This document shows, piece after piece, positions 971 to 43,910 of a stretch of 64,000 nucleotides of DNA. This stretch comes from Pristiophorus japonicus (Eukaryota). The stretch covers positions 51,150,001 through 51,214,000 of the forward strand of contig NC_091999.1 of NCBI RefSeq assembly GCF_044704955.1, in the 5' to 3' direction. How positions within the stretch are numbered: position 1 is the first letter of the stretch; every line of letters starts with the position of its first letter. The notes beneath the pieces are model-generated. The model was not told the origin of the DNA, ran no database searches, and worked only from the letters and a program-made list of their open reading frames with translations. Position numbers and translations under genes: made by a program.

Positions 971-1810
971 AATTCAAAGAGATAATAATACACACCAATT
1001 ATGCACAATGCATATGAGATCGGTAGTATTTATAAATAATTTGCAAATGATTGGTCATCAGGAGATCACATGCGTGTTGTGTTTGCTTTTTACACTAGCC
1101 TCAGAAGAAGCAGATTGAAGATTTTCCAGCAGCTTCAGACAGTGGTATTTTTCTAAAGAATGTTTGCACCATATGTTAGGACTACCTCTCTGCGTAAATG
1201 CTATTGATACAGTTGCACTCATTTTGTCCTAAGTTTAACTGTTACCATTTGTTGTGCATGTGTTGATGTCTTATCTCTTCAAACCTTTATTTCATAATAT
1301 TGATTTTCTCTTTTCTAAGCTGGCAATCGAAATTCCTTCTTCACACTCCCCTCTGATAAAAGCTCACTTCTACAGCTTTGCATCTCGCTGTTGTGTGTTT
1401 TAACCTTACAATCTTACAGTACTTTCGTTTAATTACACAAAATACCAACTAAGTTATTTTATTTCATAATCTATACGTGCATCTGCTTATATTCAATAAT
1501 CTGACTATCTCAATTATTAATGTCGAGATGGTCAAGGGTGATTGGCGCTCTAAAATCTGTGCAAAAGTAAGACAGCGCCTACAGAATGGATAGAATTACT
1601 GAAAACCTAATCAGATCCTTTTACAAGATTCGATTTGGGAGAAATAGTTAAAATACCCTCAAACATGCCCACGTTGTGTGTATGTGGAACAATCTTGGAG
1701 CGAGAGGCAATCTGGGAGTTCCGTGTGAAAGCAAAGGTAGTGAGTGCATATGTTTGGTAAAGGTCTGCACCGTGAGATATTGGACAGAATCAATGTTACA
1801 ATCTATGTAA

Positions 1811-2691
1811 TTATGTAAATCATTTAACAAGTAGATTGAGAGGAAAAGTCACCATATTCTTCAACTGTTGTCTGAATTTATTCTGGATAATGGCATAAAT
1901 ACAGGTGTTGGTGTAGGAACTCAAAAGCTTCAGCATAGTTACAAATAACCTGTAATAAACTTTGGCTCATTGAAGTTGAAACCCACGGAATAATTACCTT
2001 TTGTAATTTCAACAAATAATACCTTTGCAACATAGCCATCCATAAAAAGTTAAAACTTCCTGACATGGCGAAGAGTAAAACGATGGAATTTCTGCGGTTC
2101 TCTTTTTCTAGCTCACTCTGAGTATCTTCATTGCCGTGGGCTCGAAGTCTCCTGCGGGCTCTACTGGCCTAGAATGCGTCTAACATTGAGCAGCAAGATC
2201 AGAATCAACGGGAGCCACGGGGCTAGAATGCAGCCACTCCAGTCAAACGCTGTCCATAAAGGAGGCGTATAAAAAAGTAACTTAACGTTGCAGTAACACG
2301 ATATCTTGTTAATTATATATGATGATTTATAGATAAAATCAAAATGGATGTAAAGCACAGCGCACAGACCGTTCAAAAACCACAGCCGCCGTTTTCTCGA
2401 TGCTGTATTTTGTTTTACGATTTTGCAAGAAATGGCTACAAATTGATCGAAAGTGAAAGCGATGTGTAAACCAGGCCGAACTGGCTGCAAATATTAATAC
2501 AGTACTGACATTAAACAGCGGGGTAATGGATAGGAAGCTACCTGGGGAATAAGTAATACTGATCCTATTTCATATTACAGCGATGATAATGACAAGGAGA
2601 TCGGTCAGCCCCATCGACACCAGATACAAAATGATACATCTGGAGAGACCACACCTTCCTTGGGAAGGGATCCCTTTCGTCACAAAATTCG
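1811..2691 (-). pseudogene. GPR139-like pseudogene, exon 2
   Basis: Acceptor ttgcag|CG-AAT at 2691; collinear with the intact paralog (GRCGLSRCI, TDLLVII, AFTFDQFVAI, WTAFDW, TNTCIY). In-frame TGA at 2570-2572 and frameshifts near 2465 and 2165. Confidence 0.88.
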
Positions 2692-2849
2692 CTGCAAGTA
2701 AGAGAAATGGCAGATTAGAATTCCAATATGACTTTGTGTGAATGGTGTCTGAAGGTAGTAGCCTCTTTATTTTACAGAACTAACATAGTGTCCATTGATA
2801 CCGATGCATGGCATATAACCAAGTGGTATAAGTGCGAAAGTAAATTGTG

Positions 2850-3445
2850 AGGAAGACATGAAACATTGCAAAGACCTGCAGTACATAGGTACCTGTGGGG
2901 TCTTTGTGCACGAAAAACAAAGAGTGAGTATGCAGGTGCAGCAAGTAATCAGGAAGGCAAATGGAATGTTGACCTTTATTGCAAGAGGGATAGAACATAA
3001 AGCAGAGAAGTTCTCCAACAACTGTACAGGGTATTGGTGAGGCCACTCCTGGAGTACTGCGTACAGCTTTGGTCTCCGTATTTAAGGAAAGATATACTTG
3101 CATTAGTCGGTGTTCCAAAAAGGATATTTCCACTCATAGGGGAACTTAAACTAGTGGACAGAGATTCAGAATCAAGGCCGACCATTTAAAATTGAGGTGA
3201 GGAGGAATTTCTTCTCTCAGAGTGTTCTAAATCTAAGGAATTCTCGACCCCGGAGAGCTGTGAAGGCTGGGTCATTGAATAGATGTAAGGCGGGCAGAGA
3301 CAGATTTTTGAGCGGAAGTGGTTATGGGGAGCGTGCAGGTACGTCCATGATCACATCAGCCATAATCTCATTAATTGGCGTTGCAGGCTCGAGGGGCCAG
3401 GTAGCTTAATCCTGCTTCTTTTTCACATATTCTTATGTTTTTATG
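2850..3445 (+). mobile_element. CR1 3' fragment
   Basis: KANGMLTFI, RRNFFSQ, ttcttatgt tail. Confidence 0.8.
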
Positions 3446-3720
3446 GAATAATACAGTAACATTTGAAATTACAACTGAAGTTTGTCAAAAGACCTGAGTG
3501 AAAGTAAAATAACGTGAAAAATAATGGGTTAAAAGTGAAGGTAGTTTGTTGCAGTACATGGAACATTGAAGTTAATTGGAAAATAAGAAACTGTGAAATC
3601 ACAATAAATTAAAAAGCAACGGTAAATGATGAAAATATAAAAACAGAAAATGAGCTTTCAACGTCAAGGTAAGCATTAATAATTTAATGAATCATCAATT
3701 CAAAATCAAGCAAATAATTT

Positions 3721-5326
3721 GGCCAGGATTTTGTCTTTGTAAGAATGACGAAACTCTCAGCGTTTGCCTTCATTAACTTATGAAACTACCAGCACATTCT
3801 AGTGTCCAAAGACGCAGATTTAAATGTCGAAATTTGGAAGTTGCTGCAAGTAATACCCTGCCCCTCCATAGGATGCACTGATGAAGCTCTCGAAGAAAGA
3901 AATCTTAAAATCATCGGAATTAACGTGAACTTCCACTTTTACACTCTAATATCGCATCTAAAAAACTGAAAACGTTATGCCTTGTTGAATGCGGCGAACG
4001 GCGGGTTTAAAGGCATAGCAAGTCATAATTACTGTTGAAAACGCTCTCTTGCATTGGATAAATACGTTGTAGACTGTTAGATTTCTGCATTGTGAAAAAA
4101 ATCCGAGATTGTTAAATTAATACAATATATATTTTAAGTTTTTTTAATTTATATTTCAGCTTCATTCTTAATGCCATGAGTATGTCCCAATATCATTTTC
4201 GCTTGCTATTAAATGAGTCAATAGTGAATGATAATCCATGCTTTCTACTTCCTGGGTTGCTGTTTAAAGAATTATTCATTGTCACCGTCTTCTTAGCCTG
4301 CTTGATGACATCACTGTCGCTGCACGCCAGTGATCCCCTATAGGTAACACCAGAATGAAATTAATGTTGGGAAAGGTGCAATCCATGCCACAGTGATCGC
4401 TAGATGATTGTGGGCAGTATTAATTGAGGGCAGCTAACTCCAAAATCCGTACCTCTCCTTTATCCTCTCCTTTTTTTCCATCACTTTCTTTTGCTTTGTG
4501 TCCATGACTTGGCTTTTGATTAACTATTATAACTTACCCTTCCTGGATCAAACTTGGCATGTCTGTGTAAGGATTTCTTTCAGTCTGGTTGGTTAAGGAG
4601 ATACGCAGTTACTGGTCCTCTACACACACTGATCGGCGCTGTTTTGGATTTCTGCAGACCAAAAGGTCCAGTGCAAAAATCCATATAAAGTCTGTGGGCA
4701 AGTGTAAGTACAATGAACGGCTAGCCTTGTTCGTTGAACGCTGTCCACAATTAACCAATCAGATCGAACAATCCGCTGAATCTGAACCAAGAAGTGTAGT
4801 TAGAATAATTACTTCAAAACCAATCATGTAAAGCGAAATAAATTGAAGCAACGAAAGCTAGGATAAAGGGAGAGAGATAAAAGTGAAAGAAATAACAAAT
4901 ATTTATCTTTTACACTTATTGAACATCTCCAACAAAAATTAACAACAGAAGGAACAGGACTCTGCATATGTAAAAGTTATGTTACAGTCCCAGAGAGATA
5001 GCTTGACAGTCATTAATAATTATCTCGCCGTTAAAAATAATTTACATATCAATTGACTTACCCTAAATGATTCTGCGGTGTAAAGTGTGTATCTATCACA
5101 TAACTATTCCTACTTCACGCCGTGTATTTGAAAGCCGAGTCTGTCGGCAAGTCCCGGTTAAAGGATACAGGAAGCTCCTGTAGGAGCCAAGCAACTCGGA
5201 TGGCAACTTTCTGATTTCACCATTTGATTCTGCATGAGTGGACGCCGCAAGTTGATGTCCGATTTACTTTTAATAAGAGTAAGCGCTGATAGCCTCGCCT
5301 TTAATTGTTTTAGCAAAGTCAGGGCC
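3721..5326. mobile_element. Non-autonomous DNA element with long imperfect TIRs (GGCC ends)
   Basis: 3721-3845 is an imperfect reverse complement of about 5200-5326; no transposase ORF. Confidence 0.6.
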
Positions 5327-5706
5327 AAAGCTTTTAAACCTCATTTCAAGGCACTGATCAGAAGTAAGACACAATGTCTCGGATTTTCCTGTAGAAACAA
5401 CGGCAAGGCTATCAGTGCTGTGTTCCATAAACTGGGCGGGTTCAGATACGAGGCTGCAAATCGGTTGTGAAGGAGAATAATCCTGTATCCATTGTGTGCA
5501 TGAGTGTGTATGAGTGTGTGTAAGAGTGTGAATCGGAAGTTAACTAATTGTTTCAAAAAAATAAAAAACAGAAAGCTGGGATACATTATTGTCTCAAAGG
5601 ATACAACTTTAAGGGAGGAATTGGTGCTTAAGACAACGAGACAATTATAACTTAACTCCAACAAGTAAGCGATTTGTATCAATAATAAATTAATACAATA
5701 ACTTAC

Positions 5707-5776
5707 ATGGGACTCCGAGAGCTGCAAGAACGATGTAGTAAATGGTATAAATCAGGCTCTTTTGTGGTGCATGCAT
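5707..5776 (-). pseudogene. GPR139-like pseudogene, exon 1 (MHAPQKSLIYTIYYIVLAALGVP)
   Basis: Same 70-nt length and phase-1 gtaagt donor as exon 1 of the intact paralog. Confidence 0.85.
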
Positions 5777-6449
5777 TTTCTGTGAGCCATTCTCTGTGAC
5801 ACATAAAAAGGTACCTTTGTTTATATCTGGTGTTACTCGTCCGAGAGACGATTTGATCACATCATAAATTTATTTTTGTCAGTTATTTAAACAAACAAAT
5901 TAACAATGATTTTCACGTATGGGAATTGAATACAGTGAATGGAACAAGCAGATGTGAGTCACTTTTACTCGAATGGGTTGGAAGCATTAGACTGGATTCA
6001 AATAGAAATTATACAGGCCTAAAGCGATTTTAAGAGATTCTATGAAAAGCTTGTTGTGGAGTTGCCATGGTGAAACAAAGAGCCAAACATGAAAGGAGGT
6101 CACAGTGACACTGTTACTGTTCAAACCTATTTGGCAGAGGGAGGGAAACAAGGGTGATGTGTCAGAGAGGAGAAACATGTCAAGAATATAACTGGGAGAG
6201 AAACCACGTTAGAATAAAGAGTAGTCTAGAAAAAGGAGGAATCAGACAGAAGTTGCTGTCAGATTCACAGGATAAACGTGGTGAACGCTGACAGTTTCGC
6301 TGCAATTGCAACCGCAAAATACGAGCCATTACGTCTACTGCATTACCCTTTATTTACTTCCTCAAATAAATTAAGCTGATTGGTTAGACATCATCGGACC
6401 TTTTGTATTCCGCAACGATTAATCTTTATGACATCTAGTTTCTAGTTTA

Positions 6450-7060
6450 TAGATGTTTTTCTACTACATCTTTTGGTAAATGTTGAGTAAGTAGCAAGAA
6501 AGATAAAAAACAGATTGTAAGACCTTTTACAAGTATGTAAAAAGGAAGAGATTAGCAAAAGTAAGTGTTGGTTCCTTACAGGCTGGAACAGGTGAAATAA
6601 TGAAATGGCATAGACTTTAAACAAATATTTTATTTCTGCCTTCACAGTAGTAGACACAAAAACATAAAAAAGCAATGGAAAAACAAGGGAATATTAAGAG
6701 TGAGGAACTTAAATTCATTAATATCAGAAGAGAAAAATAACTTGAGAAACCAAAATGACTAAAGGCCTACAAATCCATTCGACCGGATTGCCTACACCCT
6801 AGGGTTCTAAATGGGGTGATTGCAGAGATAGTGGATGCATTGGTTGTCATCTTCCAAACTTTTCTGATAATAGAATGGCCCAGTGGATTGGGAGGTAATA
6901 AATATAACGCCACTATTCAAGAAATGGAGCAAAGATTAAAAAGAAAGGGAACTACAGGCCAGGTAGCCTGAACTCAGTCGTCGGGCACATGCTGGAATAC
7001 ATTACTGAGGAAATGATAAAAGAGTATCATAACTCAAATAAATGTGTGAAACGTGATTTC
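6450..7060 (+). mobile_element. CR1 ORF2 fragment
   Basis: Degenerate PGPD-LHPRVL and GNYRP regions. Confidence 0.7.
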
Positions 7061-7079
7061 CTTGGAGCAGCTGACTCCA

Positions 7080-7665
7080 TCCCTCTGCCCAACTTCTGTC
7101 TGAGACTGAAGCAAACCTTGATATCATATTTTGACCCTGAAATGAGCTTCTGACGACGTGGCCACAGCACTTGCCTCAGCGCATCCGGTGCTGTAGCCCT
7201 CATCCATGTTTTTGTTACCTCTAGATGTGTCTGTTCCAATGCACTCATAGCTGGCCTCCCACATTCTACCCTACATAAACGATAGGTATCTAAAACTTAG
7301 CTGCCCGTTTCCTGCTCACCCATCGCCCCTGGGCTCACTGAGCTACATTGGCTTCTGGTTAAGTAATGCCTTAATTTCAAAATTACCATCCTTATTTTGA
7401 AATCCCTCCATGGCATCGCCTCTCCAATCTCTCTAATTTCTTCCAGCCTCTAATTCTGCCCTCTTGCGCATCCCTGATTATAATCGCACAACCATTGTTG
7501 GCCGTGCCTTCTGTTCCCTGAGCTTCAAGCTCTGGATCTCCCTCCCTAAACCTCTCCGCCTCTCTACCTCCCTTTCCTCCTTCAAGGCGCTCCTTAAAAC
7601 CTACCTCTTTGACCAAGCTTTTGGTACCTGCGCTAATTTCTCCTAATGCGGCTCGGTGTCAAATA
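7080..7665 (+). mobile_element. L2 LINE 3' fragment
   Basis: GRAFCSLSFKLW...SSFKALLKTYLFDQAF. Confidence 0.75.
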
Positions 7666-8339
7666 TTTCAGTAGCAAAATTCACATTCGGGTTTCTGACA
7701 GTTGCCCCTATCAAGAACCAACAAAGATTGGTGGAAAATTAGGTTTAATTTATTAACAAGTTTTATTATTGACATACGCATGCACTGCAGTCAAAAGTTA
7801 GCTGCGGGTGTATAGTTTTGACAGCTTTATTAAAACAAGATTAAAACTTGTAACCTCTACAGGGCATCAAATCCTGCAGTAGGTTGATTGTACAGCCCGC
7901 CCTAATTTATTTATTTGTTAATGGGAATCAAATCGGATGGGGTATATGCTCTCTTGTAAGATCCATGCAAATTTGGGCGAAAGTTACTGGCGCCCAGATT
8001 GAGGCATATACTGGTTCATAGTTCAGCGTGATTGTTAAGTAACTAGGATCCAGGAAATTCCTGCTCGAAATTCAGGAGGAAGCCATGTGAAATACATTTT
8101 AAATGCAAATCTAGCAATTAACTGGTTTATGTTGATGTGGGGCGAGGGCATTATGCGGTCTGGTTGCAAAGTCTAAAACCCACAGTTCCTGGATATAGCT
8201 CCTTGACCTAATCTGCAAGGGGAAACATGATTTCCCAGCTCAATGGAGATCACACGCCTACAATGCGAGATGAATGGGAAAGCAATCTACTGGAATTGAA
8301 CTGTATTGATGCAAAGTCTGGCAAAGAATGCTGAATAGC

Positions 8340-9845
8340 ATAGAACAAAATAAATAGGCGCAGAAGTCGACCATACGGCCCCTTGACCCTGAGCGCCAAT
8401 TAATAAGATCATGGCTGTTCTTCGACCTCATACCCAATTTTCCACCTGATCCCCATATCACATGATTACATTTGCGTCCAAATATCTATCACTCTAAGCA
8501 TTCAATATAATCAACGACTGAACATCCACAGTCCTCTGCGTTACAGAATTCCAAAGAATCGCAACCCTCTGAGCGAAACAAAATCTCCTCATCTCAGTCC
8601 TCAATGGTCGACCCTTGTTCCTGAGATGAAACATCCTATTTCTAGACCATCCAGGCAAGGGAAACACCGTCTGAGCATCTAGCCTATCAAACCCTCTGAG
8701 AATCTTACGTCTTTCAATGAGATCATACTTAATGCCAATACATTGAGATATAATCCAAAACCGGGCAAAACTGTGGCAGTTGGAGTTTAACGTGAGTATG
8801 TTTGAGATCATCCAATTGGACCTAAGAGAGATAGATCAGAGTATTTACTAAAGTGTGAGAAGCTTGGAACTTGAGAGGAACAGAGAGGTTCCCACGTACA
8901 GGAAGCACTACAATTCAGTGGACAGGCACAAAATATATTCAGAAAGGCAAATGGAATATTGGCCATTATCGCAAGTTATTACAAGCGAACTGGAATACAA
9001 AAAGGTTGAAGTACAAGTACATATATAAGACTGTAGGTAAAACACATTTAGTGTATTGTGTTCAATTCTGGACCTCTTTCAATTCCCATTCCAGCACTGT
9101 TACCTCTGGAGTTCCCCAGGAATCTATCCTTGGCAACTCATGCTTCCCATCTCCGTGCTGCCCCTCGGCGATTATATCCGAACACAATATTATAGATTAC
9201 ACATGTATGCTGATGACACCACGCTTTACCTCATCATCTGGTCTCTCGACACCTAAACTCTCTCAGATTTGTCAAACAGCCTGTGCTACATCCAGTACTA
9301 AATATCATTGTCTTTGGTCTCTGGCACAAACCCCGTTCCCTAATTACTGACTCTACCTGGTAACTTTCTGAGCCTGAACGAGACTGATCGTAATCTTGGT
9401 GCCATAATTGAACATTGGATGTGCACCCTACCACATTACTGATCCATCACCACGACCGCCTACTCCGAACTCCATAACTTCGCAAAATCTATCTCTGCCT
9501 CAGCTCAGCTGCTGCTGAAAACATGAGCCATTGCTTTTTGACATCTAGACTTGACTTTGCAATGCACTCCTTGCAGCTTACCTACATTCTACCCCACCGT
9601 AAACTTTAGATCATCCAAGACTCTGCTGTCCATGGCTTAATTCGCTACAAATCCTGCTTACCAATCATCCCTGTGCTCGCTGACCCACGTTGGCTCCTCA
9701 TCTGATAAATGCTCGATTTTATAACATTAATTCTTGTTTTCCAATCCCTCTACGGTCTCGCCTCTCCCGACCTCTGTAGTCTCCTCCAACCGACACTCCT
9801 ACGAGATCTCTGCGCTGCTCCAGTTCTGGCCTCTTGAATATCTCC
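8340..9845. mobile_element. Nested CR1 (-), CR1 (+) and L2 (+) fragments
   Basis: CR1 tail at 8340; GVPQ.SILG and HMYADDT RT motifs at about 9105-9220. Confidence 0.7.
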
Positions 9846-9849
9846 GGTA

Positions 9850-11960
9850 ACTGGGAGGCCAGAGGATTGGGAATTTTTTTTAACAGCAAAGGATGACTAA
9901 AAAAAAAACCCAGAGAGGAAAGATAGATTATGAGAGTAAATTAGCAAGAAATATAAACAAACAGATAGTAAGAGTTTCAACAGGTATAAACAAAGGAGGA
10001 GAGTAGCAAAAGTAAATATTGGTCCCTTACATGATGAGACTGGTGAAAAAATAATGGGGAACAGGGAAGTGGCTAATACTTTGAATACATATTTTGTATC
10101 GGTTTTTATGGTAGAATAAAAACATCGCAATAAAAATAATCAAGGGGGTATAGGGAGGGAGGAACTTTAAACTATCCTTATCACTAAAGTAAAAGCACTC
10201 GGTAAAATATGGCGACTAAAGATGGACAAGTCATCTGGACCTAGTGGCCTGCATCCTAGGATCTTAACAGAAGTTGCTGCGGAGATACTGGATGCATTGG
10301 TTCTAATCTAGTAAAATATCCTGGAGTTTGTAGAGGGCTCGGTGGATTGGAAAACCGCAAATGCAACACCCCTATTTGAAAAGGAGGCAGATAGAAAGCA
10401 GGAAACTATAGACCAGTTAGACTAATATCTGTCGTTGGATAATTGCTGGAGTTCATTATTAAGCAAGCAATAGCCGGACATTTGGAAACCAATAATAAAG
10501 TCAAGCAGAGTCAGCTGTGTTTTATGAAAGGGAAATCATGTTCGACAAATTTTCTGGAGTTGTTTGAGGATATAAAAGGGGGAACCAGTGGATGTGATTT
10601 GTTTGGATTTCCAGAAGGCAGTCTATAAAGTGCCACATAAAGGGTTACTGCACAAGATAAGATTGCACGGGGTTTGGGGAAATATATTACCATGGATAGC
10701 GGACTGGCTACCGAACAGAAAACATAGAGTCTGGAATAATGCAACATTTTCCGGTTGGCAAATGATAAAGACTGCGGTGCAAGTGTCTCAACTATTTACA
10801 ATCTATAATAATTATTTGGATGAAGGGTCCATGTAATGTTGTCAAGTTTGCTAATGATACAATGATGGGTGGGAAAGCAAATTGTGAGGAGGACACAGAA
10901 AATCTGGCAGGAAACATAAAAAAGCAAATTATTATTTAAATGGAGAGTAATTGCGAAATGCTGCAGTACAGAGTGAACTGGGGTCCGTGTGCATGAAACA
11001 TAAAAATTTGGTCTGCAGATACAGCAAATAATTGGGAAGGCAAATGGAATGTTAACCTGTATTGCAAGGTGTAAAGAGTATAAAAGCAGACAAGTCCTAC
11101 AAAAACTGTGTAAAGTATTGGTGAGAACACTCCTAGAGTACTGTGTACGAATTTGATCTCATTATAGAAGCAGGGATATACTTGCATTGGAGGCTATTCA
11201 GTGATGGTTCACTAGGTTGCTTCTTGAGATGAACAGGTTGACTTGTGAAGAAAGGTTGAGCAAGTTGGGCATATACTCCTTGGCGTTTAGAAGAATGAGA
11301 GTTGATCTTATTGAAACATACAAGATACTGAGAGGGCTCGTCACGGTAGATGCAGAGAGGATTTTTCCCCTCGTGGGTTATTCAAGAGCTAGGGGGCATA
11401 GTTTTAAAATAAGGGGTCGCCCATTCAGAGCGGAAATGAGGAGGAATTTTTCTCTCAGTGTGTCTTACATCTCTGGATTTCTCTGCCAAGGAAAGCTGTG
11501 GAGGCTGGGTCAATGAATATTTTTAAGCGGAGATAGGCAGCTTTTTGAGTGATCAGGGTGTAAAGGGTGATGGGGAGCGATCAAGGAAGTGGAATTGATT
11601 CCGTGATCAGATCAGCCATGATCTTAATAAATGGCGGAGCAGGCTCGACGGGCCAAATGGCCTATGCTTGCTCCTATTTCTTGTGTTCTTAATCGCTCAA
11701 CCTTTGACAGCTGTACCTTCAGCTGAAAAGGCATAAGCTTTCTAATTCCCTCCCTAAACATCTACGCCTCTCTGACGCCTTCTCCTTCTTTAACACGCTC
11801 TTTATACGCTACCTCTTTGTCCAAACCTTTGATCACCTGCGCTAATATCTCCTTAAGTGACTCGTTGTCACATTTTGTTCGATAAAGATCCTGTGAAGTG
11901 CCTTGAGATTCTTTACTATGTTAAAGGCGCTGAATAAATGTAATTTATTGTTGTTGTGCA
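9850..11960 (+). mobile_element. Decayed CR1 ORF2 to 3' end, followed by an L2 tail
   Basis: KGKSCSTN, LDFQKA, RARGHSFK; L2 tail aaaggcgct...ttgttgttg. Confidence 0.85.
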
Positions 11961-12947
11961 CCGCGCAAGAGGAATGATATATTAGCCAGAATGACACGAA
12001 GCATTTATTTTTTGGTATCAGCGAATAGCACACGGAAGAGAAACGTGTTGATTTGGTGAATTGCAAACATTCCTTTAAAGCCATAAAGTTCACAGTGTAT
12101 ATTTATACATTGAAGAAGTGCCAGTCAGTGCCTGGTAATCAGTTGGCCCAGTACATCACCATGTTTTCTCTAACACTTACCCTTCACGTTCCTATTTCAC
12201 AGTCTCAGTGTATATATTCTTATCATTTCATTGGAACAGAGGCAGCTGGAATGGATAGGGGAGGTTCATCACATGTAAGACTGAAGAGTTGTTCTTCAAA
12301 TTACAACATGCAGAGATTGCGATGTAAAAGTGCGTGTTGTTTACATTAATCAACGATTAATGCAACAGAACAACATTACGAAAAAGCTGCGACCGAGGTG
12401 TAGTCCCACTTTTGTGTGTAGACACTTTACAGTTTTATTTTTCGGAGATTTCTAGCGAAATATTGTACAAACATTCTTTCAATTTCGCTAGAACTAACGA
12501 TGGAGAATATATTTTCTTATATTTACTGTATCAGTAATGGAGCAATTATTTCTTGCCCGTTTAGGCTAATCCAAGTGAAAACAACGAGGGACATTTTGTA
12601 CATCCAAGTGAGCTGGCAGTGTTATGTTTAAGATTCGGGCCTGTAGCTCTCTCATTAATGGATACAGCTACTTGTGTTTAAAGTGGAGACAGCAAATTTG
12701 GTAAAAAGGAGAACGAAAGAGGGATAATAAAATTATAGCTTATCTCTGCTAGAATCAAAGTAACAGTATTCCATTTTCGGACACAACTCACTCGCTGCAG
12801 TTTCAATCCTTTTCCCTTTCCTGATGCAATGTCCAATCTCAGCTGTACGGACAAAGGACTGCGGCTGAGCGGTGGGCACTAGGAGGATAGAACAACGAAG
12901 CTGTTCTCATCTGGGAGCAGTAATGAACTTGTCTGTCCAACCTATCG

Positions 12948-14178
12948 GGAGGCTCCAAAGGGCGTTGCAGCCAGGGTTGACCAAAAGAGTGTGACATGCA
13001 GGAAGGTACCAAAGATCTTTGCAACCAGGGAGGTTCCAAAGCGCTTTACACCCAGGGAGGTTCCAAAGGGCTTTACACCCAGAGACGTTCCAAAGTGCTT
13101 TACACCTAGAAAGGTTCCAAAGGGCTTTACACCCAGGGAGGTTCAATGGAGCTTTACAGCGAGGGAGGTTCCAAAGTGCTTTACACCCAGAGATGTTCCA
13201 AAGATATTTACACCCAGGGAGTTTCCAAAGATATTTACACACAGGGAGGTTCCAAAGTGTTTCATACCCAGTGAGGTTCCAAAGTGCTTCACACCCAGGG
13301 AGTTTCCAAAGAGATGTATCCCCAGGGAGGGATGTATCCCCAGGGAGGATCGAAAGTGTTTTACACGCAGGGAGCTTCCAAAGAGATTTATACCCAGGGA
13401 GTTTCCAAAGATATTTACACCCAGCAAGGTTCCAAAGTGTTTTACACCCGGAGGTTCCAAAGTGTTTCACAGCCAGGCAAGTTCCAAAGTGTTTTACACC
13501 CAGGGTGGGTCCAAAGTGTTTTCATGCAGAGAGGGTCCAAAGTGTTTTACAACCAGGGAGGTTCCAAAGAACATTGCACCCAGGGAGGTTCCAAAGCGCA
13601 TTACACCCAGGGAGGTTCCAAAGGGCATTACACCCAGGGAGGTTCCAAAGAGCATTACACCCAGGGAGGTTCCAAAGTGTTTTACACCCAGGGAGGTTCC
13701 AAAGTGTTTTACACGCAGGGAGGTTCCAAAGTGTTTTACTCCCAGGGAGGTTCCAAAGTGTTTTACACCTAGGGAGGTTCCAAAGTGTTTTACACCCAGG
13801 GAGGTTCCAAAGAGCATTACACCCGGGATGGGGGGTGGTTCCAAAGTGTTTGACACCCACAGGGAGGTTTCAAAATGTTTTACACCCAAGGAGGTTCGAA
13901 GGCGATTTACACCCAGGGAGGTTCCCTGGAGCTTTACACCCAGTGAGGTTCCAAAGTGTTTTACACCCAGGGAGGTTCCAAATTGTTTTACACCCAGGGA
14001 GTTTCCAAATAGTTTTTCTCCCAGGGAGGTTCCAAAGTATTTCAGACCCAGGGAGGATCCAAAGTTTTTTACACCCAGGAAGGTTCCAAAGTGTTTTACT
14101 CCCAGGGAGGATCCAAGGCGATGTACTCCCAAGAAGGTTCCATGGAGCCTCACACCCAGGGAGGTTCCAAGGTGCTTT
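12948..14178. repeat. 27-bp minisatellite (cccagggaggttccaaagtgttttaca), about 45 copies
   Basis: Visible tandem periodicity; translates as a 9-aa repeat on both strands. Confidence 0.95.
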
Positions 14179-14179
14179 A

Positions 14180-14545
14180 TATTGAAGTGTAGTCATTGTT
14201 GTAATGCAGGGAAACGTGGCAGCGGATTTGCACTCAGCAAAGTTCCACCTACCGAGAAATAAATACAGGCGCAGATAATCATTTTTGGTGATATTTGTTG
14301 AGCGATAAGCATTGGTCAGGGCATCGGCAGAACATTTACTCACTTCTTGAATATAATACACTCAGATCCTTGGCATCCACCTGATAGGGAAGACGGAACC
14401 TCGGTTTAAAGTCTCACTTGAAAGACAGCACCATCTGACAAAGAAGCATTCCATCAGTACTGCACGGGCGGGTCAACCTGTAATGGGACTTGAACCCACA
14501 TTCTTCTAACTGAGGTGCAAGAGGGCTACCACGGCTGAGTGCATC
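14180..14545 (-). mobile_element. SINE, same family
   Basis: Collinear with 28760-29130, including the gggttcaagtccc B-box. Confidence 0.75.
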
Positions 14546-14780
14546 CACCTCAAAAACCAAGCTATTCCTAAAGATACAACTGACTTACTGCACGAAGGTA
14601 AGTGTCAGCATCCATAGGACATGACGGGTCACTTGGAAATAAAATAAATCAGTTTACAACATTAAATTGGGTGATAAAGTGTATGTTTCCACTGTGGAGA
14701 ATAGGAATGACCAGCGGGTTTGGAGAATTGGAACGAAAGACTACAGTGCAGAGCTTAATGGAGGTTGAGTGCTGGAATAG

Positions 14781-15682
14781 CTAGTTTCGTTGTAGAAGTA
14801 ATTTAACAACTAGATTCAATGGATATTTCAGCGCGTTCTTTAACTGCTGTCTGAAGTTACTCTGAGTCACTGTATAAATAAACATGTTAGTGCAGCAGCT
14901 TAGGAGCTGAAGCATGTTTCCACTTTCCTGCAGAACAAATTTGGGGTCATTGAAATAATTATTGTTTTCAATTCGGACATAGAGAAAATTGATAACATAC
15001 GTCAACCACAACAGGATGAAACTTCCCGAGATGGTGAAGAGTAAAATTATGGACTTTCGCCGGCTCTCCATCTCTGGATCACTCTGACTCTCTCCATTGT
15101 TTTGGGCCCGGAGTCTCCTGCGGGCCCTACTGGCCCCTAGAATGTATCTGACGGTCACAGCATTGAGCAGTAACATCAGGAGGAACGGTGCACACGGGGT
15201 TAGAATACGGTCCAGCCAGTCAAACGCTGTCCAAGCGGGTGAAAAATAAAAAGTAAGTTTTATGTTGCAGTACCAGGCCACATTATTAATAGTAAACAAT
15301 GGCTCATACGTGAAGTAGAAAGGGATGTTTTTTAAACAACTCAGGGCACAGACCGCTCCTATCACCACAGCCGCCGTTGTCTCGGTGCAGTATTTTGTTT
15401 TCAGCTTCTGGCAACAAATGGCCACAAATCGATCAAAGGTGAACGCGACCGTTAACCAGACAGAACTGTCTCTTGATGAATAAATGAGCACAGTGCTGAT
15501 GCTGCACGCTGGTGTGGTGGACAGAATGCTATTCCGGAAATAGATACCACCAATTCTATTCAATATCACAGCGGTGATAATCACCAGGAGATCGGTCACC
15601 GCCATGAACACCAGGTACCGAGTGATACACCTGGAGAGACCGCACCTTCCTCGGGACAGGATCACAATCGCCGCGATGTTCG
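14781..15682 (-). CDS. GPR139-like: GPR139-like class A GPCR, exon 2 (TM1 end to TM7 and stop); spliced product 323 aa
   Basis: Open frame with TM2 MAVTDLL, TM3 SVWLTVAFTFDRFVAIC, ECL2 WYC, TM6 FILLWL and TM7 SCCTNMFIY. Acceptor ttttgcag|CG-AAC at 15682 joins exon 1 in phase 1 to give GVP-A-N. Confidence 0.9.
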
Positions 15683-16544
15683 CTGCAAAAAGGAGCAAAA
15701 TGGAAATTACACATCAGACTACCATCATAAGAACATAAGCACATATGAAATAGGAGCAGGAGTAGGCCATTTGCCTCCAACCGCACCCCCCTCCCCCGGG
15801 CCTGCTCCGCCATTTAATAAGATCATGGCTGATTTGATCATGGATCAGCTCCACTTCCTGCCCACCCCCCCGAAACCTTCTTTCACTTATCGCTCAAAAA
15901 TCTGTTTATCTCCGCCTTAATTATCTTCAGTGACCCAGCCTCCATAGCCATTCAAAATCTTAGTTTGACTGGACATGGTTTCTGAGTTCATTACCTGATC
16001 AGTTGATGGAATCCAATCAATTTGCCAGATCAGCAGAGCTTCACTAAATACGGAACAATATGGAATCGCAGGGAAAGCGTTTTGCTCGATAGACGTGAAG
16101 CTATAATCGCCTGAACTCGGCACAAAAAGAGAAGGAGAGCGAAACTGACCATAATAAAGAACAGAAATAAACTAATAGTTAATGAATAATTTATCCCAAC
16201 ATTAAATAGGACAAGCTAAACATAATGTCACCTTGAAAATTGATGGTAGAAAGAGTGCGATCGACTGCTATTTACACCTCAGGAGAATCGTAAAATCCCC
16301 ATATGGAATGACTCCAAATTACGACTGTTGCTATCTGGTTAATGGAGTAGCTATTCTGCTAATGGGCGGTGAAAAAAGGCAATGAGATCATTGACCAGCA
16401 AACTGCACCTTTGTGATATTGGTTGAGGGACAAATGTTGGCCAGGGCACAACTCCCAGCACTCGGTCCAGTTGTTCCTTGAACATTAGACAGTGTCATGG
16501 TATGCAGTATCACTGTAAAGGCGGCATTGCAGAGAACCTGTCAG

Positions 16545-18325
16545 TGACAGCTGGGTTGAGCCTATAAACTGCAGGATAAGTGGTGAGGGAGCGTTGTATG
16601 GGAGCCACTCAGTGAGAGCCAGAGGTGAGTCCATAACCTGTAAGATAGAAGGTGAGGGAGCGTATAGTGTGAGCCACTTCTTGAGAGCTGGGGGTGAGTC
16701 TATAAATTGCGCGATAAGTGGTGAGAGAGTGTTTAATGGGAGCCACTCGGTGAGAGCCGGGGGTGAGTCCATAACCTGTAGGATAGGTGGTGAGGGAGCG
16801 TTTAATGGGAGCCAGTCAGTGAGCGCCGGGTGCGAGTTCATAACCTGAGGGATTGGTGGTGAGGGTGCATTTAATGTGAAGCACTCAGTGAGAGCCGGGG
16901 GTGAGCCTATAAACTGTGGGATAGCTGGTGAGGGAGCGTATAGTGTAATACACTCCATGAGAGCCGAGGTGAGTCTATAAACTGCGGGATAGGTGGTGAG
17001 GGAGCGTTTAATGGGAGTCACTCAATGAGTGCCGGGGGTGAGTCTATAAAATGCGGGACAAGTGGTGAGGGAGCATTTAGTGTGAGCCACTCAGTGAGAG
17101 CTGGTGGTGAGTCTATAACCCATTGGACAGGTGGTGAGGGAGCGTTTAATGGGAACCACTCAGTGAGAGCCGGGGGTGAGCCTATAAAGTGGGGGATAGG
17201 TGGTGAGGGAGCATATAGTGTGAGCCACTCCATGAGAGCTGAGGTGAGTCTATAAACTGCGGGATAGGTGGTGAGGGAGCGTTTAGTCTCAGCCAGTCAG
17301 TGAGAGCTGGGGGTGAGTCTATAACCCATTGGATAGGTGGTGAGGGCACGTTTAATGGGAGCCATTCAGTGACCGCCGGGGGTGAGTTTATAACCTGATG
17401 AATAGCTGGTGAGGGAAGTTTAATGGGAGCCACTCAGTGAGAGCCGTGGTCAGTCTATAATATGCGTGATACGTGTTCAGGGAGCGTTTAACATGAGCCA
17501 CTCTGTGACAGCCGGGGGTGTGTCCATAACCTGTGGGTTCGGTGGTGAGGGAGCGTTTAATGGGAGCTACTCAGTGACAGCCGGGGATGAGTCTATAACC
17601 TACGGGATAGGTGGTGAGGGAGTGTTTAATGCGAACCACTCAGTGAGAACCGGGGTTGAGTCTATAACTTGTGGCATAGGTGGTCAGGGAGCGTATAGAT
17701 TAAGCACTCCTTGAGAGCCGGGGATGAGCCAATAAACTGCGGGATAGGTGGTGAGGGAGTGTATAGTGTAAGCTACTCCTTGAGAGCCGGGGGTGAGCCT
17801 ATAAACTGCGGGATAGGTGGTGAGGGAGCGTTTAATGAGATCCACTTAATGAGAGCTGGGGGTGAGTCCATAACCTGTGGGATAGAAGGTGAGGGAGAGT
17901 ATAGTGTGAGCCACTCAATGAGAGCCGGGGCTGAGTCCATAACTTGTGGGATAGGTAGTGAGGGAGCGTTTAGTGTGAGTCAGTCAGTGAGCGCCGGGTG
18001 TTAGTCCATAACTTGTGGGATAGGTAGTGAGGGAGCGTTTACTGTGAGCCACTCAGTGAGAGCTGGGGGTGAGTCTAAAACTCATTGGATAGGTGGTGAG
18101 GGATCGTTTAATGTGAGTCATTCAGTGACAGCCGGGGGTGAGCTTATAACCTGCGGCATAGTTGGTGAGGGAGCGTTTAATGGGAGCCACTCAGTGAGAG
18201 CCGGGGTCTGTCTAGAACCTGCGTGAAACGTGTTGAGGGAGCGTTTAATGGGAGCCACTAAGAGACAGTCGGGGATGAGCTTATAGCCTGCGGGATAGGT
18301 GGTGACGGAGTGTTTAATGTGAGCC
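16545..18325. repeat. 69-bp minisatellite, about 26 copies, in the GPCR intron
   Basis: Unit ggtggtgagggagcgtttaatgggagccactcagtgagagccgggggtgagtctataaactgcgggata. Confidence 0.93.
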
Positions 18326-19197
18326 ATCCATTCAGAATCGGACATGCAACAAGAAGCAGATTGTAAAAGACACGTTAAATGTTGTGAATCATTTCAGAGG
18401 TGGTGAATGTGGACCGTGCCACCAGGGATGATGAACGGTCGGGTTAAATTTGGATTTTGGCTCCCGGTTTGAAGATGGGATTAGGAGTTACACGGAAACA
18501 TCGTGGAGGAGCAAATGAGCCACTGGTTGACCGGCTCCAGTAAAATGACCAAGGGGTTGCTCCAAACTGAAGTAGGAGGCCGCGGGCCAAGCAGAGAATG
18601 ATACAGCACAGAAGTTAACCATTCGGCCCATCGTGCCTGTGCAGGCTCTTTGACAGAGCTATCCCCTGTTCTCCTCTCGGAACCGTGCTATTTCCACCTT
18701 AGAGTACTTATCGAATTCCCTTTAGAAAGTTACTATTGAATGTGCCTCCACCACCCTTTCAGCATTGCATTCCAGATCACAACAACACGCTACATAAAAA
18801 ATTATTCCTCATCTCACCTCTGTTTTATTTGCCAATCACCTTAAATCTGTGACCTCTGGGTCCCGACCTTTCTGCCACTGTAAACCGTTTCTCATGATTT
18901 AGTTTGTCAAAGCCCTACATGGTTTTGAACACATCGATTAAATCTACCCTTAACCTTCTCTGCTCCAAGGGCCACTAGCCGAGTTTCTCTCGTCTCTGCA
19001 AGTAATTGAAGTCCCTCATCCCGGTCTTTGGACCGGTGCCATGGATAGCAATGGAGGGTTGACTGGAGAGGGCAACGGTCTGGAACATTAGCAAAGAATA
19101 GAAGTAACAAGTGGAGTTGAACAGCATTTAAAAAAGAGAATCCCAGAGTAGCTCATTCCAAGAGCAGGACAAGATTTCACTGAACGATGGCGACAAA

Positions 19198-19615
19198 AAG
19201 AAAGAAAGACTTGCAATTATATTGCACCTTTCACGACCTCACGATGTCTCAAAACGTTTTAAGCCAATTAAGTACTTTTGAAGTGTATTCACTTTCGTAA
19301 TGTAAGAAACGGGACAGCCAATTACCATATTACAAGCTTCCACAAACAGCAATGTGATGATGAACAGATTTTCTTTTTTAGATTTGTTGATTGAGGGTTA
19401 AATATTGCCCAGGAATCCGGCGATAACTCTTCTGCTCTTCTTGCCATGGAAACTTTAACATCTACCTGAGAGAGCAGATGGTGGCTCAGTTTTACGTCTC
19501 ATCTGAAACACAGCACCTCTGACAGTGCCACGCTCTCCCAGCACTGAACTGGAGTGTCAGACTTGATTTTGTGGTGAACCTTCTGGAGTGGACTTCAACC
19601 CATAATCTTCTGATG
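19198..19615 (-). mobile_element. SINE, same family
   Basis: Collinear with 28672-29095. Confidence 0.75.
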
Positions 19616-20499
19616 GTTCTACAGCGTAATTAATAGAAACTGCGAATTTTTCATTCTTAGTTAACGGTTGTCAATAACGCTGAGCTAACACATTATCAGT
19701 AAATGCACTACTTACACTCAGTCACTGATATTTCATTATCAAACCAATCAGTTAAGTGATAGTTTGCTGAAGATAGTTATCAACATGAAGTTACCATTAC
19801 CTAATCTTGTGAGTAATTCCTTGAAGTATTTATTACATTTAGCGAGTAGATTCTTAATTATTAAACGTTTGAAAGTAAGCAATGAAAGCTCTAATGCAAA
19901 CTTACTTTAACGAACACTGTCACGTCTAGAAATAAATCAATTTTTCAGGTCATGTTGTGCAATAAAATCACTAACACTCAATAGTTACTGTCCAGGAAAC
20001 GTGCGCGTCATTTGTACCAAAAAAGTATCAGGCCAGTACACAGATATACATATCTGAATGCATCTTTCGAGTTGCCTCAGTAATTGAATTAAATCAACTT
20101 TAACACAAGGGATAGCCAAGTTATCCGTAGACTCGCACCTCAGAAACTAAAGCCATTATGAATCGTTCTGTACCAAATTAGATAACTGGAAATAAGGCCC
20201 AGCAACATTGCTAATTTATAACAATGCAACATTTACACTCAAAGTGCTATAAAAGAATCTCCATTTACAACCAGTTTGAATTGATTACACCGAGACAGCA
20301 GCAGTAGATGGAAGAAAGTCAGCCCGATTGTGAACGAGATCCCCAGAGCAATGACAGATGAGCATTAAACTGACGCCGAATTCAAAGCAATGGATATAAA
20401 CAGATGAATTTAAATATAATTGTAAAGCACAGAATCGTTTTATTGTGGACCTCGTGTAATCTTTTTGAAGCTCTTTCAGTGACGAAAGATATGCTGGAG

Positions 20500-23135
20500 C
20501 TAACCTGTCCAGTCCCGTCAGAATCTTGTAAGTTTAGATGAGATCCCTTCTCATCCTTCTAAACTGCAATGTATAAAGGCCCAGTTGATCCAGTCTCTCC
20601 TCATATGTCAGTCCCTCCATGCCGGGAATCAGTCTGGTGAACCTTCGCTGTACTCCCTCAATAGCAAGAACGTCCTTCCTCAGGTTAGGAGACGAAAACT
20701 GAAAACAATATTCCAGGTGAGGCCTCACCAAGGCCCCGTACAACTGTAGTAAGACCTCCCTGCTCCAATACAAATCCCCTCGCTATGAAGGCCAACGTAC
20801 CATTTACCTTCTTCACTGCCTGCTGCACCTGCATGCCAACTTTCAACGACTGATGAACCATGACACCAAGGTCTCAGTGCACCTCCCCCTTTCCTAATCT
20901 TCCACCATTCAGATAATATTCTGCCTTCGTGTTTTTGACCACAGATTGGATAACCTCACATTCATCCACATTATACTGCATCTGCCATGCATTTGCTCAT
21001 TCACCTAACCTGTCCAATCACCCTGAAGCCTTTTAGCGTCCTCCTCACAGCTCACACCGTTACGCAGTTTAGTGTCATCTGAAAACTTGGAGATATTACT
21101 CTCAATTACTTCATCTAAATCACAAATGTATATTCTAAAGAGCTGGGGTCCGAGTCATGAGCCCTGCGGCATCCCACAAATCACTGCCTGCAACTCTGAA
21201 AAGGACCCGTTTATCCCGACTCTCTGCTTCCTGTCTGCCAACCAGTTCTCTACCCACGTCAGTACCTGACCCCCAATACCATATGCTTTGATGCTGCACA
21301 CCAATTTCTTGGGTGGGACCTGGTCAAAAGCCTTTTGAAAGTCCAAATACACTACATCCACTGGTTCTCCCTTGTCGACTTTACTAGTTACATCATCAAA
21401 AATTCCAGAAGATTTGTCAAGCATGATTTCCCTTTCATAAATGCATGCTGACTTGGACCGATCCTGTCACTGCTTTTCAAATGCGCTGCTATTTCATCTT
21501 TAATTATTGATTCCAACATTTTGCACACTACTGATCTCAGGCTGACTGGTCTATAATTACCCGTTTTCTCTCTCCCTCATTTTTTAAAAAGTAGTGTTAC
21601 ATTTGCTGCCCTCCAGTCCATAGGAACTGATCCAGCTTCGATAGAATGTTGGAAAATGATCGCCAATGCATCCATTATTTCTATGGCCACTTCCTTAAGT
21701 ATTCTGGGATGCAGACTATCAGGCCCCGGGGATTTATCGGCCTTCAATCCCATCAATTTCCCAAACACAATTTCCCACTTTATAAGGATATCCTTCAGTT
21801 CCTCCTTCTCACCAGGCCCTCGGTCCCCTAATATTTCTGGAAGGTTACTTGTGTCTTCCTTCGGGAGAACAGAACCAATGTATTTGTTTAACTGGTCTGC
21901 CATTTCTTTGTTCCCCATTGTAAATTCACGTGAATCTGAATAAAAGGGACCGACGTTTGTTTTCACTAATCTTTTCCTCTTCACATATTTATACAAGCTT
22001 TTGCAGTCAGTTTTTATGTTCCCAGCAAGGTTCCACTCATACTCTATTTTCCCCCTCCTAAGTAAACCCTTTGTCCTCCTCTGCCGTGTTAGAAAATTCT
22101 CCAAGTCCTCAGGTTTGCTGCTTTTTCTGGCCAATTTATATGCCTCTTCCTTGGACTTAACACTATTCTGAATTTCCCTTGTTAGCTAAGGTTGAGCCAC
22201 CTTCCCCATTTTATTTTTACTCCAGACAGGGATGTACAATTGTTGAAGTTCATCCATGTGATCTTTAAATGTTTGCCACTGCCTATCCGTCAACCTTTTA
22301 TGTATCACTCGCCAGTCTATTCTAGCAAATTCATGTCTCATACTATCAAAGTTACCTTTCCCCAAGTTCAGGACCCTAGTCGCTGAATTAACTGTGTCAC
22401 TCTCCATCTTCATAAAGAATTCCATCATATTATGGTCACTCTTCCCCAAGGGGCGTAGCACAACAAGTTTGTTAATCAGTCCTTTCTCAGTACACATCAC
22501 CCAAACTAGGAAAGCCAGCAAACTAGTTGGTTCCTCGACATATTGCTCTGGACAACCATTCCTAATACACTGCAGGAAATCCTCCTCCACCGTATTGCTA
22601 CCAGTTTGGTTAGCCCAATCAATATGTAGATTAAAGTCGCTCATGATAACTGCTGTACCTTTATTGCATGCATCCCTAATTTCTTGTTTGATGCTGTTCC
22701 CATCCTCATTACTCGTGTTCGTTGGTCTGTACACAACTCCCACTAGCGTTTACTGCCCTTTGCTATTCCGTAGCTCCATCCATACAGATTCCGCATCATC
22801 CAAGCCAATGTCCTTCCTTATTATTGCATTAATTTCCTCTTTAACCAGCAACGGCATCCCACCTCCTTTTCCTTTCTGTCTATTGCTCCTAAATGTTGAA
22901 TATCCCTGGATGTTGAGTTCCCATACTTGGTCACCCTGGAGACATGTCTCTGTGATGCCAATTACATCAGATCCGTTAACTGCTATCTGCGCAGTTAATT
23001 CGTCCACCTTATTCCGAATACTAGTCGCATTGAGGCACAGAGCCTTCAGGCTTGACTTTTTAACACCCTTTGCCCGTTTAGAATGTTGCTGTAATGTGGC
23101 CCCTTTTGCCCTCCACTTTTACTTTTCTTCTTTCT
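20500..23135 (-). mobile_element. CR1 ORF2 (endonuclease + RT), decayed
   Basis: GITETCLQ, VVYRP, SPGPDSLHP, VDVVYLDFQKAFD, RPHLEYC. Confidence 0.92.
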
Positions 23136-23143
23136 ATCTTTTA

Positions 23144-23455
23144 TCAGTATTCAGACATGGTTACAGCCTGATTGTCAGCTCGGTGTTCGGGTAGGTCTGC
23201 CACTGTGTCAGTATTCAGACACAGTTACAGTCTGATTGTCAGCTCTGTGTTCGGGTAGGTCTGTCACTGTGTCAGTATTCAGACACGGTTACAGTCTGAT
23301 TGTCATCGCGGTGTTCGGGTTGTCTCACTGTTTGTCAGTATTTAGAGAAGGTTACAGTCTGATTGTCAGCTCGGTGTTCGGGCAGGTCTGTTCCTGTGTA
23401 TCAGTATTCAGACACAGTTACATTCCGATTGTCAGCTCGGTGTTCAGGTAGGTCT
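23144..23455. repeat. About 64-bp tandem repeat, 5 copies
   Basis: tcagtattcagacac..ttacagtctgattgtcagctcggtgttcgggtaggtctg repeated. Confidence 0.9.
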
Positions 23456-23718
23456 ATTTCACTCTGTGCGGGTGTTCACACCAGTCCATTTTTGAAAATG
23501 CTAACTCACTGTATGAACATAAATGTATAGCCTCCAGGTGGTGCGGGTCTGGCTGGTTGAAAAATTACTTGCAGATGCGGATCATTTAAGAATTTCAATA
23601 AAATACCCTTCCTAATAAAAATAGAAGGTTGGGTTACAGAAAAACATTGAGAACACATTCAGAAAATCCCAGTCCAGACAGTTAAATGATGAGCTCTAGA
23701 ATTACCTTCATATCTCAC

Positions 23719-23788
23719 CTGGAACCCCGATAGCTGCAAGGACAGGATAGTAAATCGCAAATATCTGACCATTTGCTGGTGAATGCAT
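23719..23788 (-). CDS. GPR139-like: GPR139-like GPCR exon 1 (MHSPANGQIFAIYYPVLAAIGVP)
   Basis: 70 nt = 23 codons + 1; ends CCAG|gtgag; phase matches exon 2; YY..L..G.PAN resembles GPR139-family TM1. Intron 15683-23718. Confidence 0.88.
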
Positions 23789-32165: not shown

Positions 32166-32249
32166 GACAAAACGTTTTATTTGTCTCGAACCGTTGAGTG
32201 AAGACCCAAGGATTGTGTTGTTGCTCTGTAAAAATCTCGGCTGACAAAC

Positions 32250-32403
32250 CAGTACAGTGCTGAGGGCTCAGTGAGTGCTGCATGGTCGGAGGTGCTGTCT
32301 TTCAGATAAAACGTTAAACTGAGGTCTGCCCTCTAAGATGGACGTAAAAGATCCCATGGCAATATTTTGAAGAAAATCAGGGGAGTTATCGCCGGTGTCC
32401 TTG

Positions 32404-36469: not shown

Positions 36470-36970
36470 AGTGGAGTCTGTAACTAGTCGCCCTGCATAC
36501 AGTGTGCCTTTCTCCCAGTGTGCAGTGCGACGCTGCAACAGATGTCCCTGTGTACAGTGTGCATATCCCGGTGTGGAATCAGGCTTTCTAAGAAGTGTTC
36601 CTCTGTACAGTGTGTGTCTCTCCTAGTGAGGAGTAAGACTCTGTAACAAGTGTTCCTGTGCACATTATGTGCCTCCAAGCGTGGAGTCAGACTCTGTAAC
36701 AAATCTCCCTGCGTACAATGTGTATATCCCGGTGTGGAGTCAGACTTTGTAACAAGTGTCCTGGTGAACAGTATGTGCCCCTCCCAGTGTGGAGTCAGAC
36801 TAGCTAACAAGTGTCCTTGTGTACAGTGTGCCTCTCCCAGTGTTAAGATGGAAGTTGTAACAAGTGTTCCTGTATAAAGTGTGTGTCTCCTCCAGTATAG
36901 AGTCAGACACTAACAAATGTTTCTGTGTACAGTGTGCCTCTCCTAGTATGGAGTCGGACTCTGTAACTAG
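36470..36970. repeat. About 54-bp tandem repeat, about 9 copies
   Basis: gtacagtgtgcctctcccagtgtggagtcagactctgtaacaagtg repeated. Confidence 0.85.
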
Positions 36971-36974
36971 TGAT

Positions 36975-42636: not shown

Positions 42637-42724
42637 ATGAACACAGCTCATAATTCACAGAGTGCGTTATGGATCACAACAGTGCCCGTCAATGCAGTAC
42701 TTTTCCTCCTAACCGTTCTACCGG
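42637..42724 (+). CDS. Leader exon of TCR V1 (MNTAHNSQSALWITTVPVNAVLFLLTVLP)
   Basis: Hydrophobic end; phase-1 donor G|gtaggt is compatible with the acceptor at 43603. Confidence 0.6.
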
Positions 42725-43602: not shown

Positions 43603-43910
43603 CATCCAGCCGGCAGGGTGAACTTTCCCAAAGGCCTTCAGCAGCAGCAGCGAGTGAAGGAGGTACGGCGGTGTTGCCCTGTAACTACTCCACCACATAC
43701 ACAGCCGCTAACCTATTCTGGTATGTACAGTACTTGGGAAGAGGCCTTCAGTACATGCTCGCCAGACACACTGCTGGGAATGAAGAGAACGCACCAGCCT
43801 TTATAAAGCAGTTTTCTGCCGTACAGGACAGAATGAACAAAAACATCCCTTTGAACATCACACCCACCCAGCTGTCTGACTCCGCCGTGTATTACTGCGC
43901 AGCTATGTAG
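43603..43910 (+). CDS. TRAV: T-cell receptor alpha/delta-type V segment (V1)
   Basis: tttgcag acceptor; EGGTAVLPCNYS, LFWYVQ, LSDSAVYYCAA (C23/W41/C104 present); followed directly by a 23-RSS. Confidence 0.88.

Follow-up and report, generated by a model that had tools for sequence, protein, structure and literature searches.

What are the two receptor genes on the minus strand of a 64,000-nt stretch of DNA from the sawshark Pristiophorus japonicus, and what would such receptors be used for? All coordinates are given in the numbering of this whole stretch, hereafter the window, and the two genes are designated gene A and gene B. An earlier account made from the letters alone, the sequence-only reading, had taken them for GPR139-like paralogs of an expanded, rapidly turning-over family, possibly an amino-acid or peptide chemosensory repertoire next to T-cell receptor (TCR) V genes. 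Both genes almost certainly belong to a large family of two-exon class A G-protein-coupled receptors (GPCRs) found in sharks and rays. Published papers are cited by PMC number.

Structure of the receptor gene pair

Gene A begins with a 70-nt exon 1 (23719-23788, minus strand; 23 codons plus 1 nt), which encodes a short N-terminus and most of transmembrane helix (TM) 1 and ends at a phase-1 GT donor. It is followed by an 8,036-nt GT-AG intron (15683-23718, minus strand), holding fragments like long interspersed nuclear elements (LINEs) and tandem arrays of 69 bp and 64 bp, and by exon 2 (14781-15682, minus strand), which runs from the end of TM1 to the stop codon. The spliced open reading frame (ORF) of 323 amino acids (aa) encodes an intact class A GPCR, and exon 1 received 99 tblastn matches from 120 family proteins. 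Gene B, a pseudogene, has an open 70-nt exon 1 with a GT donor (5707-5776, minus strand), an intron of 3,015 nt and an exon 2 remnant that begins at 2691 and ends near 1805 (1805-2691, minus strand). Its exon 2 has the first stop at codon 64, and a single pairwise alignment with gene A gave 10 frameshifting indels. The intron lies inside GVP-x-N in both genes, so that the exon and intron mapping agrees with the sequence-only reading of two same-strand paralogs sharing a 70-nt exon 1 and a phase-1 intron, one of them intact and the other dead.

The exon 2 DNAs of genes A and B are 73% identical (634/867 columns), with identities of 78, 78 and 63% at the three codon positions. The dN/dS ratio proposed as a check was calculated for gene A versus gene B only and is about 0.39, indicating that gene B was coding during part of its history and that the divergence was partly under selection before gene B died. 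Besides the exons, blastn between the two loci matched two repeat fragments only, and any likeness between the sequences 5' of exon 1 in the two genes was below significance. Tblastn with the 120 family proteins revealed no third receptor copy in the window. Weak matches at about 28.9 kb (best E 0.002) and 34.7-35.0 kb (best E 0.005) were not accepted as further copies; the former sits in a repeat common to other window positions.

The N-terminus of gene A is very short, as had been claimed: Tyr 1.39 is residue 14, compared with Y33 in human GPR139. The TM6 sequence LLWLT and the TM7 sequence TNMFIY are both as first read, but a TM7 lacking Pro does not distinguish the pair, since human GPR139 has INFFLY at this place, and the distinctive feature is the loss of Pro in TM6 only.

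A large receptor family in sharks and rays

A homolog search yielded 4,473 candidates, of which 2,630 match at E≤1e-10, a total that may include fragments and non-shark relatives; the details given here come from the best 120 of the 2,630. Of these, 118 belong to 15 named shark and ray species. No chimaera occurs among the best 120, and the range shown is therefore elasmobranch. The horn shark, Heterodontus francisci, contributes 46 clusters at 67-82% identity, located on seven sequences, with 29 of them on one sequence of 59.5 Mb; another member lies on an eighth, so that the family occupies at least eight horn-shark sequences. The closest named relatives among the best 120 come from P. japonicus itself, in 12 clusters with 29 member sequences; these clusters are 92-97% identical to gene A, and two of them hold eight members each. 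When representatives at 50% identity were counted, 114 matched at E≤1e-30, 226 at 1e-10 and 1,253 at 1e-3.

Most of the 120 best matches are full length (320-330 aa). The disulfide cysteine pair is present in 114/114 aligned close paralogs, and the DR motif in 114/114 close paralogs and 46/47 distant representatives; two close matches carry Pfam PF10324. A FastTree tree, built from gene A with 114 of the best 120 proteins (six long models were dropped), contains both groups shared by sharks and rays and species-specific duplicates; the family combines old groups common to sharks and rays with young duplications within species. The claim of an expanded family with turnover of its members is borne out by the number of matches, the at least 46 horn-shark clusters, pseudogene B and the species-specific duplicates.

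Two observations concern the closest sawshark sequences. Gene A and its 97% relatives share an in-frame 15-nt deletion (window 14954), which removes five residues of the third extracellular loop that P0003, P0004 and gene B retain; the deletion marks a young sawshark subgroup. Two database models at 97% identity to gene A, P0001 and P0002, do not have the usual exon 1. In P0002 the opening part matches LINE-like sequence at window 22495-22590, inside the gene A intron, and at 225-311, which suggests misannotation.

Relation to GPR139

Gene A encodes a class A (rhodopsin-like) GPCR. It matches Pfam 7tm_1 with 68.4 bits (cut-off 30.5; E 8.6e-19) and keeps the class A motifs N1.50, D2.50, DR3.50, P5.50 and Y7.53, and its match to 7tm_4, the odorant receptor family, is 20.1 bits and under the cut-off of 27. 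The structure model, of moderate confidence (pLDDT 67.9), is a helical bundle, and its Foldseek matches are GPCR structures. Human GPR139 is the top solved-structure match by sequence (E 1.6e-11), by profile (1.2e-16) and also by fold. By sequence and fold GPR139 is the nearest characterised receptor, to which the family appears related and from which it appears distinct.

The likeness to GPR139 and GPR142 includes the two-exon structure (PMC7318219), G-x-P-A-N in TM1, the absence of Pro in TM7, and W6x48 together with N7x38. Among the differences, the identity of gene A with human GPR139 is 22% in the structure alignment, the N-terminus is 19 residues shorter, P6.50 is lost, and the shark family is multi-copy with pseudogenes. 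The cysteine pair between TM3 and extracellular loop 2 (ECL2) is present in gene A and is not visible for GPR139 in the sequence alignment. Six residues of the GPR139 pocket for Trp and Phe were taken from a mutagenesis study (PMC5430874) and mapped by helix numbering and sequence alignment; gene A keeps W6x48 and N7x38, whereas E3x32, F3x33, H5x43 and R6x51 are changed. P6.50 is kept in only 3/114 close paralogs and 7/47 distant representatives compared with 20/20 amphibian sequences, and its loss in the shark family looks derived.

The name "probable" or "putative GPR139" is carried by 110/120 of the best database matches, and taken at face value it would make gene A a true GPR139 ortholog; another reading would make the pair in the window a chance local duplicate. 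We consider either of these virtually untenable. Human and zebrafish GPR139 orthologs are 70% identical (PMC7318219), in comparison with the 22% of gene A; amphioxus proteins score higher against human GPR139 than gene A does (100.8 versus 47.3 bits); and the horn-shark clusters are not what a single-copy gene would give. With 22% identity and two of six pocket residues, the database name is a nearest-hit label without orthology, and the possibility raised at the outset, that the intact gene is the syntenic GPR139 ortholog, does not hold.

Relatives outside sharks and rays

A profile search using three tail matches as seeds found 34 proteins among 8,000 scored candidates: 20 from amphibian species (counted as one 90% cluster per species), one from sturgeon, three from elasmobranchs, nine from amphioxus and one without a name. 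No amniote or teleost relative is among the 34, in a search that missed one of its own seeds. In an IQ-TREE tree of 51 proteins, built without GPR139 and GPR142, the shark-type family and the amphibian/sturgeon gene form one clade (support 100/99), the P0240 group is sister to that clade (99/94), and amphioxus comes next. The grouping of the shark-type rows to the exclusion of the amphibian gene received a support of only 70/32. This sister group, made up of P0240, P0252 and P0265, lacks W6.48 and P6.50.

Against human GPR139, the Xenopus protein scores 62 bits and P0240 70, between the values of gene A and amphioxus given above, and this series fits a separate jawed-vertebrate lineage. The lineage is possibly related to the GPR210 clades, orphan sets described beside GPR139 and GPR142 in coelacanth, gar and other fishes (Rinne 2019, PMC6504862). 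In the available text of that survey there are no shark data and no expansion is reported. The P0240/P0252/P0265 group or the sturgeon gene may correspond to GPR210 of that survey.

The amphibian/sturgeon orphan receptor (P0232, P0276-P0295 and P0298) is itself labelled GPR139 and is not an ortholog of it. Represented by P0232 of Pleurodeles waltl, P0276 of Xenopus tropicalis and P0298 of Acipenser ruthenus, it resembles the shark family in its short N-terminus, cysteine pair and DR motif, and the amphibian gene is about 30% identical to gene A. Unlike the shark family, the amphibian gene has one cluster per species, keeps P6.50 and has a glycosylation sequon in ECL2 (18/18); its pocket is near-invariant. 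The X. tropicalis ortholog lies on a sequence of 164.0 Mb, which we take to be chromosome 5 and not the TRA/TRD chromosome.

Variability of the predicted pocket

Entropy at 25 predicted pocket positions, chosen by helix numbering, was compared with that at 71 other positions of the outer TM region. In the amphibian orthologs (n=20) the pocket is more conserved (0.08 versus 0.43, p=0.0005). The distant representatives (n=47, near-full-length) show the reverse, the pocket being more variable than the other outer-TM positions (2.65 versus 2.05, p=0.004) with the inner TM region conserved (1.17). Our reading of these values is that a one-ligand ancestral receptor would have multiplied into subfamilies that bind different ligands and share their signalling, and the family is probably a multi-ligand receptor repertoire.

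Five of the six GPR139 pocket residues differ among the distant paralogs. With only two of the six kept in gene A, pocket conservation lends no support to the amino-acid ligands that had been suggested.

Probable transcription of relatives

No match of gene A in sequencing runs was recorded as RNA. Three runs matched, with shares of 0.04-0.06, and their status as RNA is a guess; they come from one other organism and one study. Many contigs in these runs are about 80-90% like exon 2, with up to 24 at one position, and loose ends found at the exon boundary in two of the three runs can be read as exon 1 joined to exon 2 without the intron. The contigs support the gene model and the transcription of relatives of gene A, and intronless copies would also give such a junction.

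Proposed function and its alternatives

For the use of such a repertoire, external chemosensation is our tentative reading, held at slightly less than even confidence. It draws, largely by analogy, on the architecture of the family, its short N-terminus with a glycosylation sequon in 1/99 sequences, the ligands of the clade and invertebrate precedents, and the diversified pocket is consistent with it. V1R and T2R receptors likewise have a short N-terminus without glycosylation. Ligands known for the clade comprise aromatic amino acids as well as amidated aromatic peptides (PMC8557429). The varied pocket of each copy would accept small ligands different from those of the others, and all copies would signal through the conserved G-protein face. 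Judged from the ancestry of the clade, the ligands could be peptides, amino-acid derivatives or similar soluble molecules, and the expressing cells would be chemosensory, such as olfactory microvillous neurons, taste cells or solitary chemosensory cells. We put it at somewhat below even odds that sharks and rays have in this way built an unrecognised family of vertebrate chemoreceptors from a single orphan gene of the GPR139 clade, a family that exceeds their V2R set and is used in the nose or in other chemosensory cells.

Several results weigh against this function. Among the close named paralogs (n=114) variability in the pocket does not exceed that at the other outer-TM positions (1.09 versus 1.07, p=0.9), the outer TM region as a whole still being more variable than the inner (0.63). 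The 47 distant representatives, in which the pocket does vary, have no taxon names, and several of them look fused or mispredicted. Diversity of the pocket among paralogs is also seen in immune and peptide receptor families, so that it is no specific sign of smell or taste. The three runs have no library record in addition to the guessed RNA status and their origin in one study. In the neighbourhood of genes A and B the genes are of immune type, namely NLR-like and TCR V. Among the 50 leading genes listed as specific for brain and olfactory epithelium of the catshark there is no GPCR (PMC11979771), a weak counterpoint, as the V2Rs are likewise missing from that list.

Immune or barrier sensing, in which leukocytes or mucosal epithelia would detect microbial or damage peptides as mammalian formyl-peptide and MRGPR receptors do, could draw on the same pocket diversification and on the NLR-like pseudogene and TCR-alpha-like V genes nearby. 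The presence of many paralogs in all three runs would also be in keeping with a cell type that occurs widely, provided that different tissues were sampled. We regard this explanation as unlikely though plausible: the family is dispersed over at least eight horn-shark sequences, and the known clade members are neural or endocrine (PMC7318219, PMC8557429). The one supplement searched from a single-nucleus paper on nurse shark spleen (4,750 characters) does not mention the family and is too small to weigh. The standing of GPR139 as the top structural match, together with W6x48 and N7x38 in gene A, would suit internal nutrient or peptide sensors of gut, pancreas, brain or gonad, in an expanded GPR139/GPR142 role, and the invariant amphibian pocket suggests one fixed, probably endogenous ancestral ligand. 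Dozens of pocket-divergent copies and pseudogenes are hard to square with a few endogenous ligands, and such a role seems to us quite unlikely.

It is quite unlikely, finally, that the copies represent mostly neutral copy-number drift in repeat-rich regions with few functional members. Heavy decay of gene B, the near-identical sawshark clusters and the many 50%-identity representatives that are fragments or fusions would be expected from drift, and the model that opens with LINE-like sequence hints at poor transcript support. Against it stand the full length of most of the best matches, the invariant cysteines, the kept DR motif and the groups common to sharks and rays. External chemosensation remains the reading that we prefer, at the confidence given above.

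Comparison with known receptor repertoires

The OR, TAAR, V1R/ORA, V2R and T2R families and the immune FPR and MRGPR receptors resemble the present family in their birth-and-death clusters, variable pocket and conserved cytoplasmic face. These vertebrate chemoreceptor radiations differ from it in ancestry, the shark family belonging to a peptide/orphan clade. Nematode Srw proteins are chemoreceptors. Srw and similar invertebrate expansions belong to the clade of FMRFamide and MIP receptors, and Pfam 7TM_GPCR_Srw is found on 17-74% of the members of look-alike families in an atlas; compared with Srw, the shark family appears to be an independent expansion in vertebrates.

A relative paucity of GPCRs has been described for cartilaginous fishes (PMC8455134), and the catshark olfactory repertoire consists of 34 V2R genes, with 4-9 genes for each of the remaining families (PMC10116579); 21/32 catshark V2Rs are enriched in brain and olfactory epithelium (PMC11979771). 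In their available text, the two catshark receptor papers cover OR, TAAR, V1R and V2R only (PMC10116579, PMC11979771). Literature searches, with subscription papers and unread supplements outside their scope, found no published description of the shark receptor family; a 2025 review of GPR139 has no occurrence of "shark" or "cartilaginous", and term searches for the family in the accessible supplements of PMC10529500, PMC13188829, PMC10115646 and PMC8455134 were negative. The proteins themselves are already in public annotations.

At least 46 horn-shark members among the close matches are concealed by a misleading automatic GPR139 name. If the chemoreceptor reading is true, the family would explain the keen chemical sense of sharks despite few known olfactory receptor genes. 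Should the olfactory rosette express its members, the puzzle of a keen sense of smell with a small receptor set could be tested directly with catshark tissue RNA-seq that already exists. As immune or gut receptors they would still be a large innovation of elasmobranchs that is undescribed. The conserved gene of Xenopus offers a laboratory route to the ancestral ligand and is a target for deorphanisation.

Neighbourhood of the gene pair

Between the receptors and the V genes, six-frame translation revealed a frameshifted pseudogene on the plus strand (approximately 30500-32300), presumably NACHT/NLR-like from the motifs that we recognised in it; one fragment only matched Pfam NLRC4_HD2, with E=0.16. 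NLR-related genes are expanded in the whale shark (PMC8455134).

On the plus strand are three V segments, all of which point away from the receptors. V1, which is TCR-alpha-like (42637-43949), has a leader at 42637-42724 and a V exon at 43603-43910, followed by a heptamer with two mismatches, a 23-bp spacer and a nonamer. No stop interrupts its leader and exon before an in-frame TAG directly 5' of the heptamer (both within 43905-43949), and V1 would be usable only with the junction trimmed. V2 (54100-54330, plus strand) is a decayed remnant in which the scan found no recombination signal. V3 (60026-60420, plus strand, with its exon at 60100-60420) has a perfect recombination signal with a 23-bp spacer, the heptamer being at 60382, and reads TSFC in place of the usual V-domain YYC, an altered final cysteine motif; a V3 leader was not located.

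From the start codon of gene A to the first V leader the distance is 18,849 nt, in agreement with the spacing of about 19 kb first read. To describe the receptors as abutting the V genes was an overstatement, because the NLR-like pseudogene and repeats intervene. OR genes are interspersed at the 5' end of the mammalian TRA/TRD locus. The special tie of this kind that had been proposed for the shark receptors is not supported, given the intervening pseudogene and the spread of the family in the horn shark, and the TCR V genes are probably incidental neighbours. In a homolog search with V1, four of 28 candidates matched; no named shark was represented among the four, and the search was uninformative on linkage.

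The region resembles a mosaic of repeats and families with many copies. Long minisatellites occur at 12999-14179, 16541-18326, 23144-23455, 36477-36972 and 39429-42358, with units of 27, 69, 64, 53 and 27 bp, respectively, the last of them having about 109 copies of its 27-bp unit. The long ORFs in these minisatellites are repeat artefacts.

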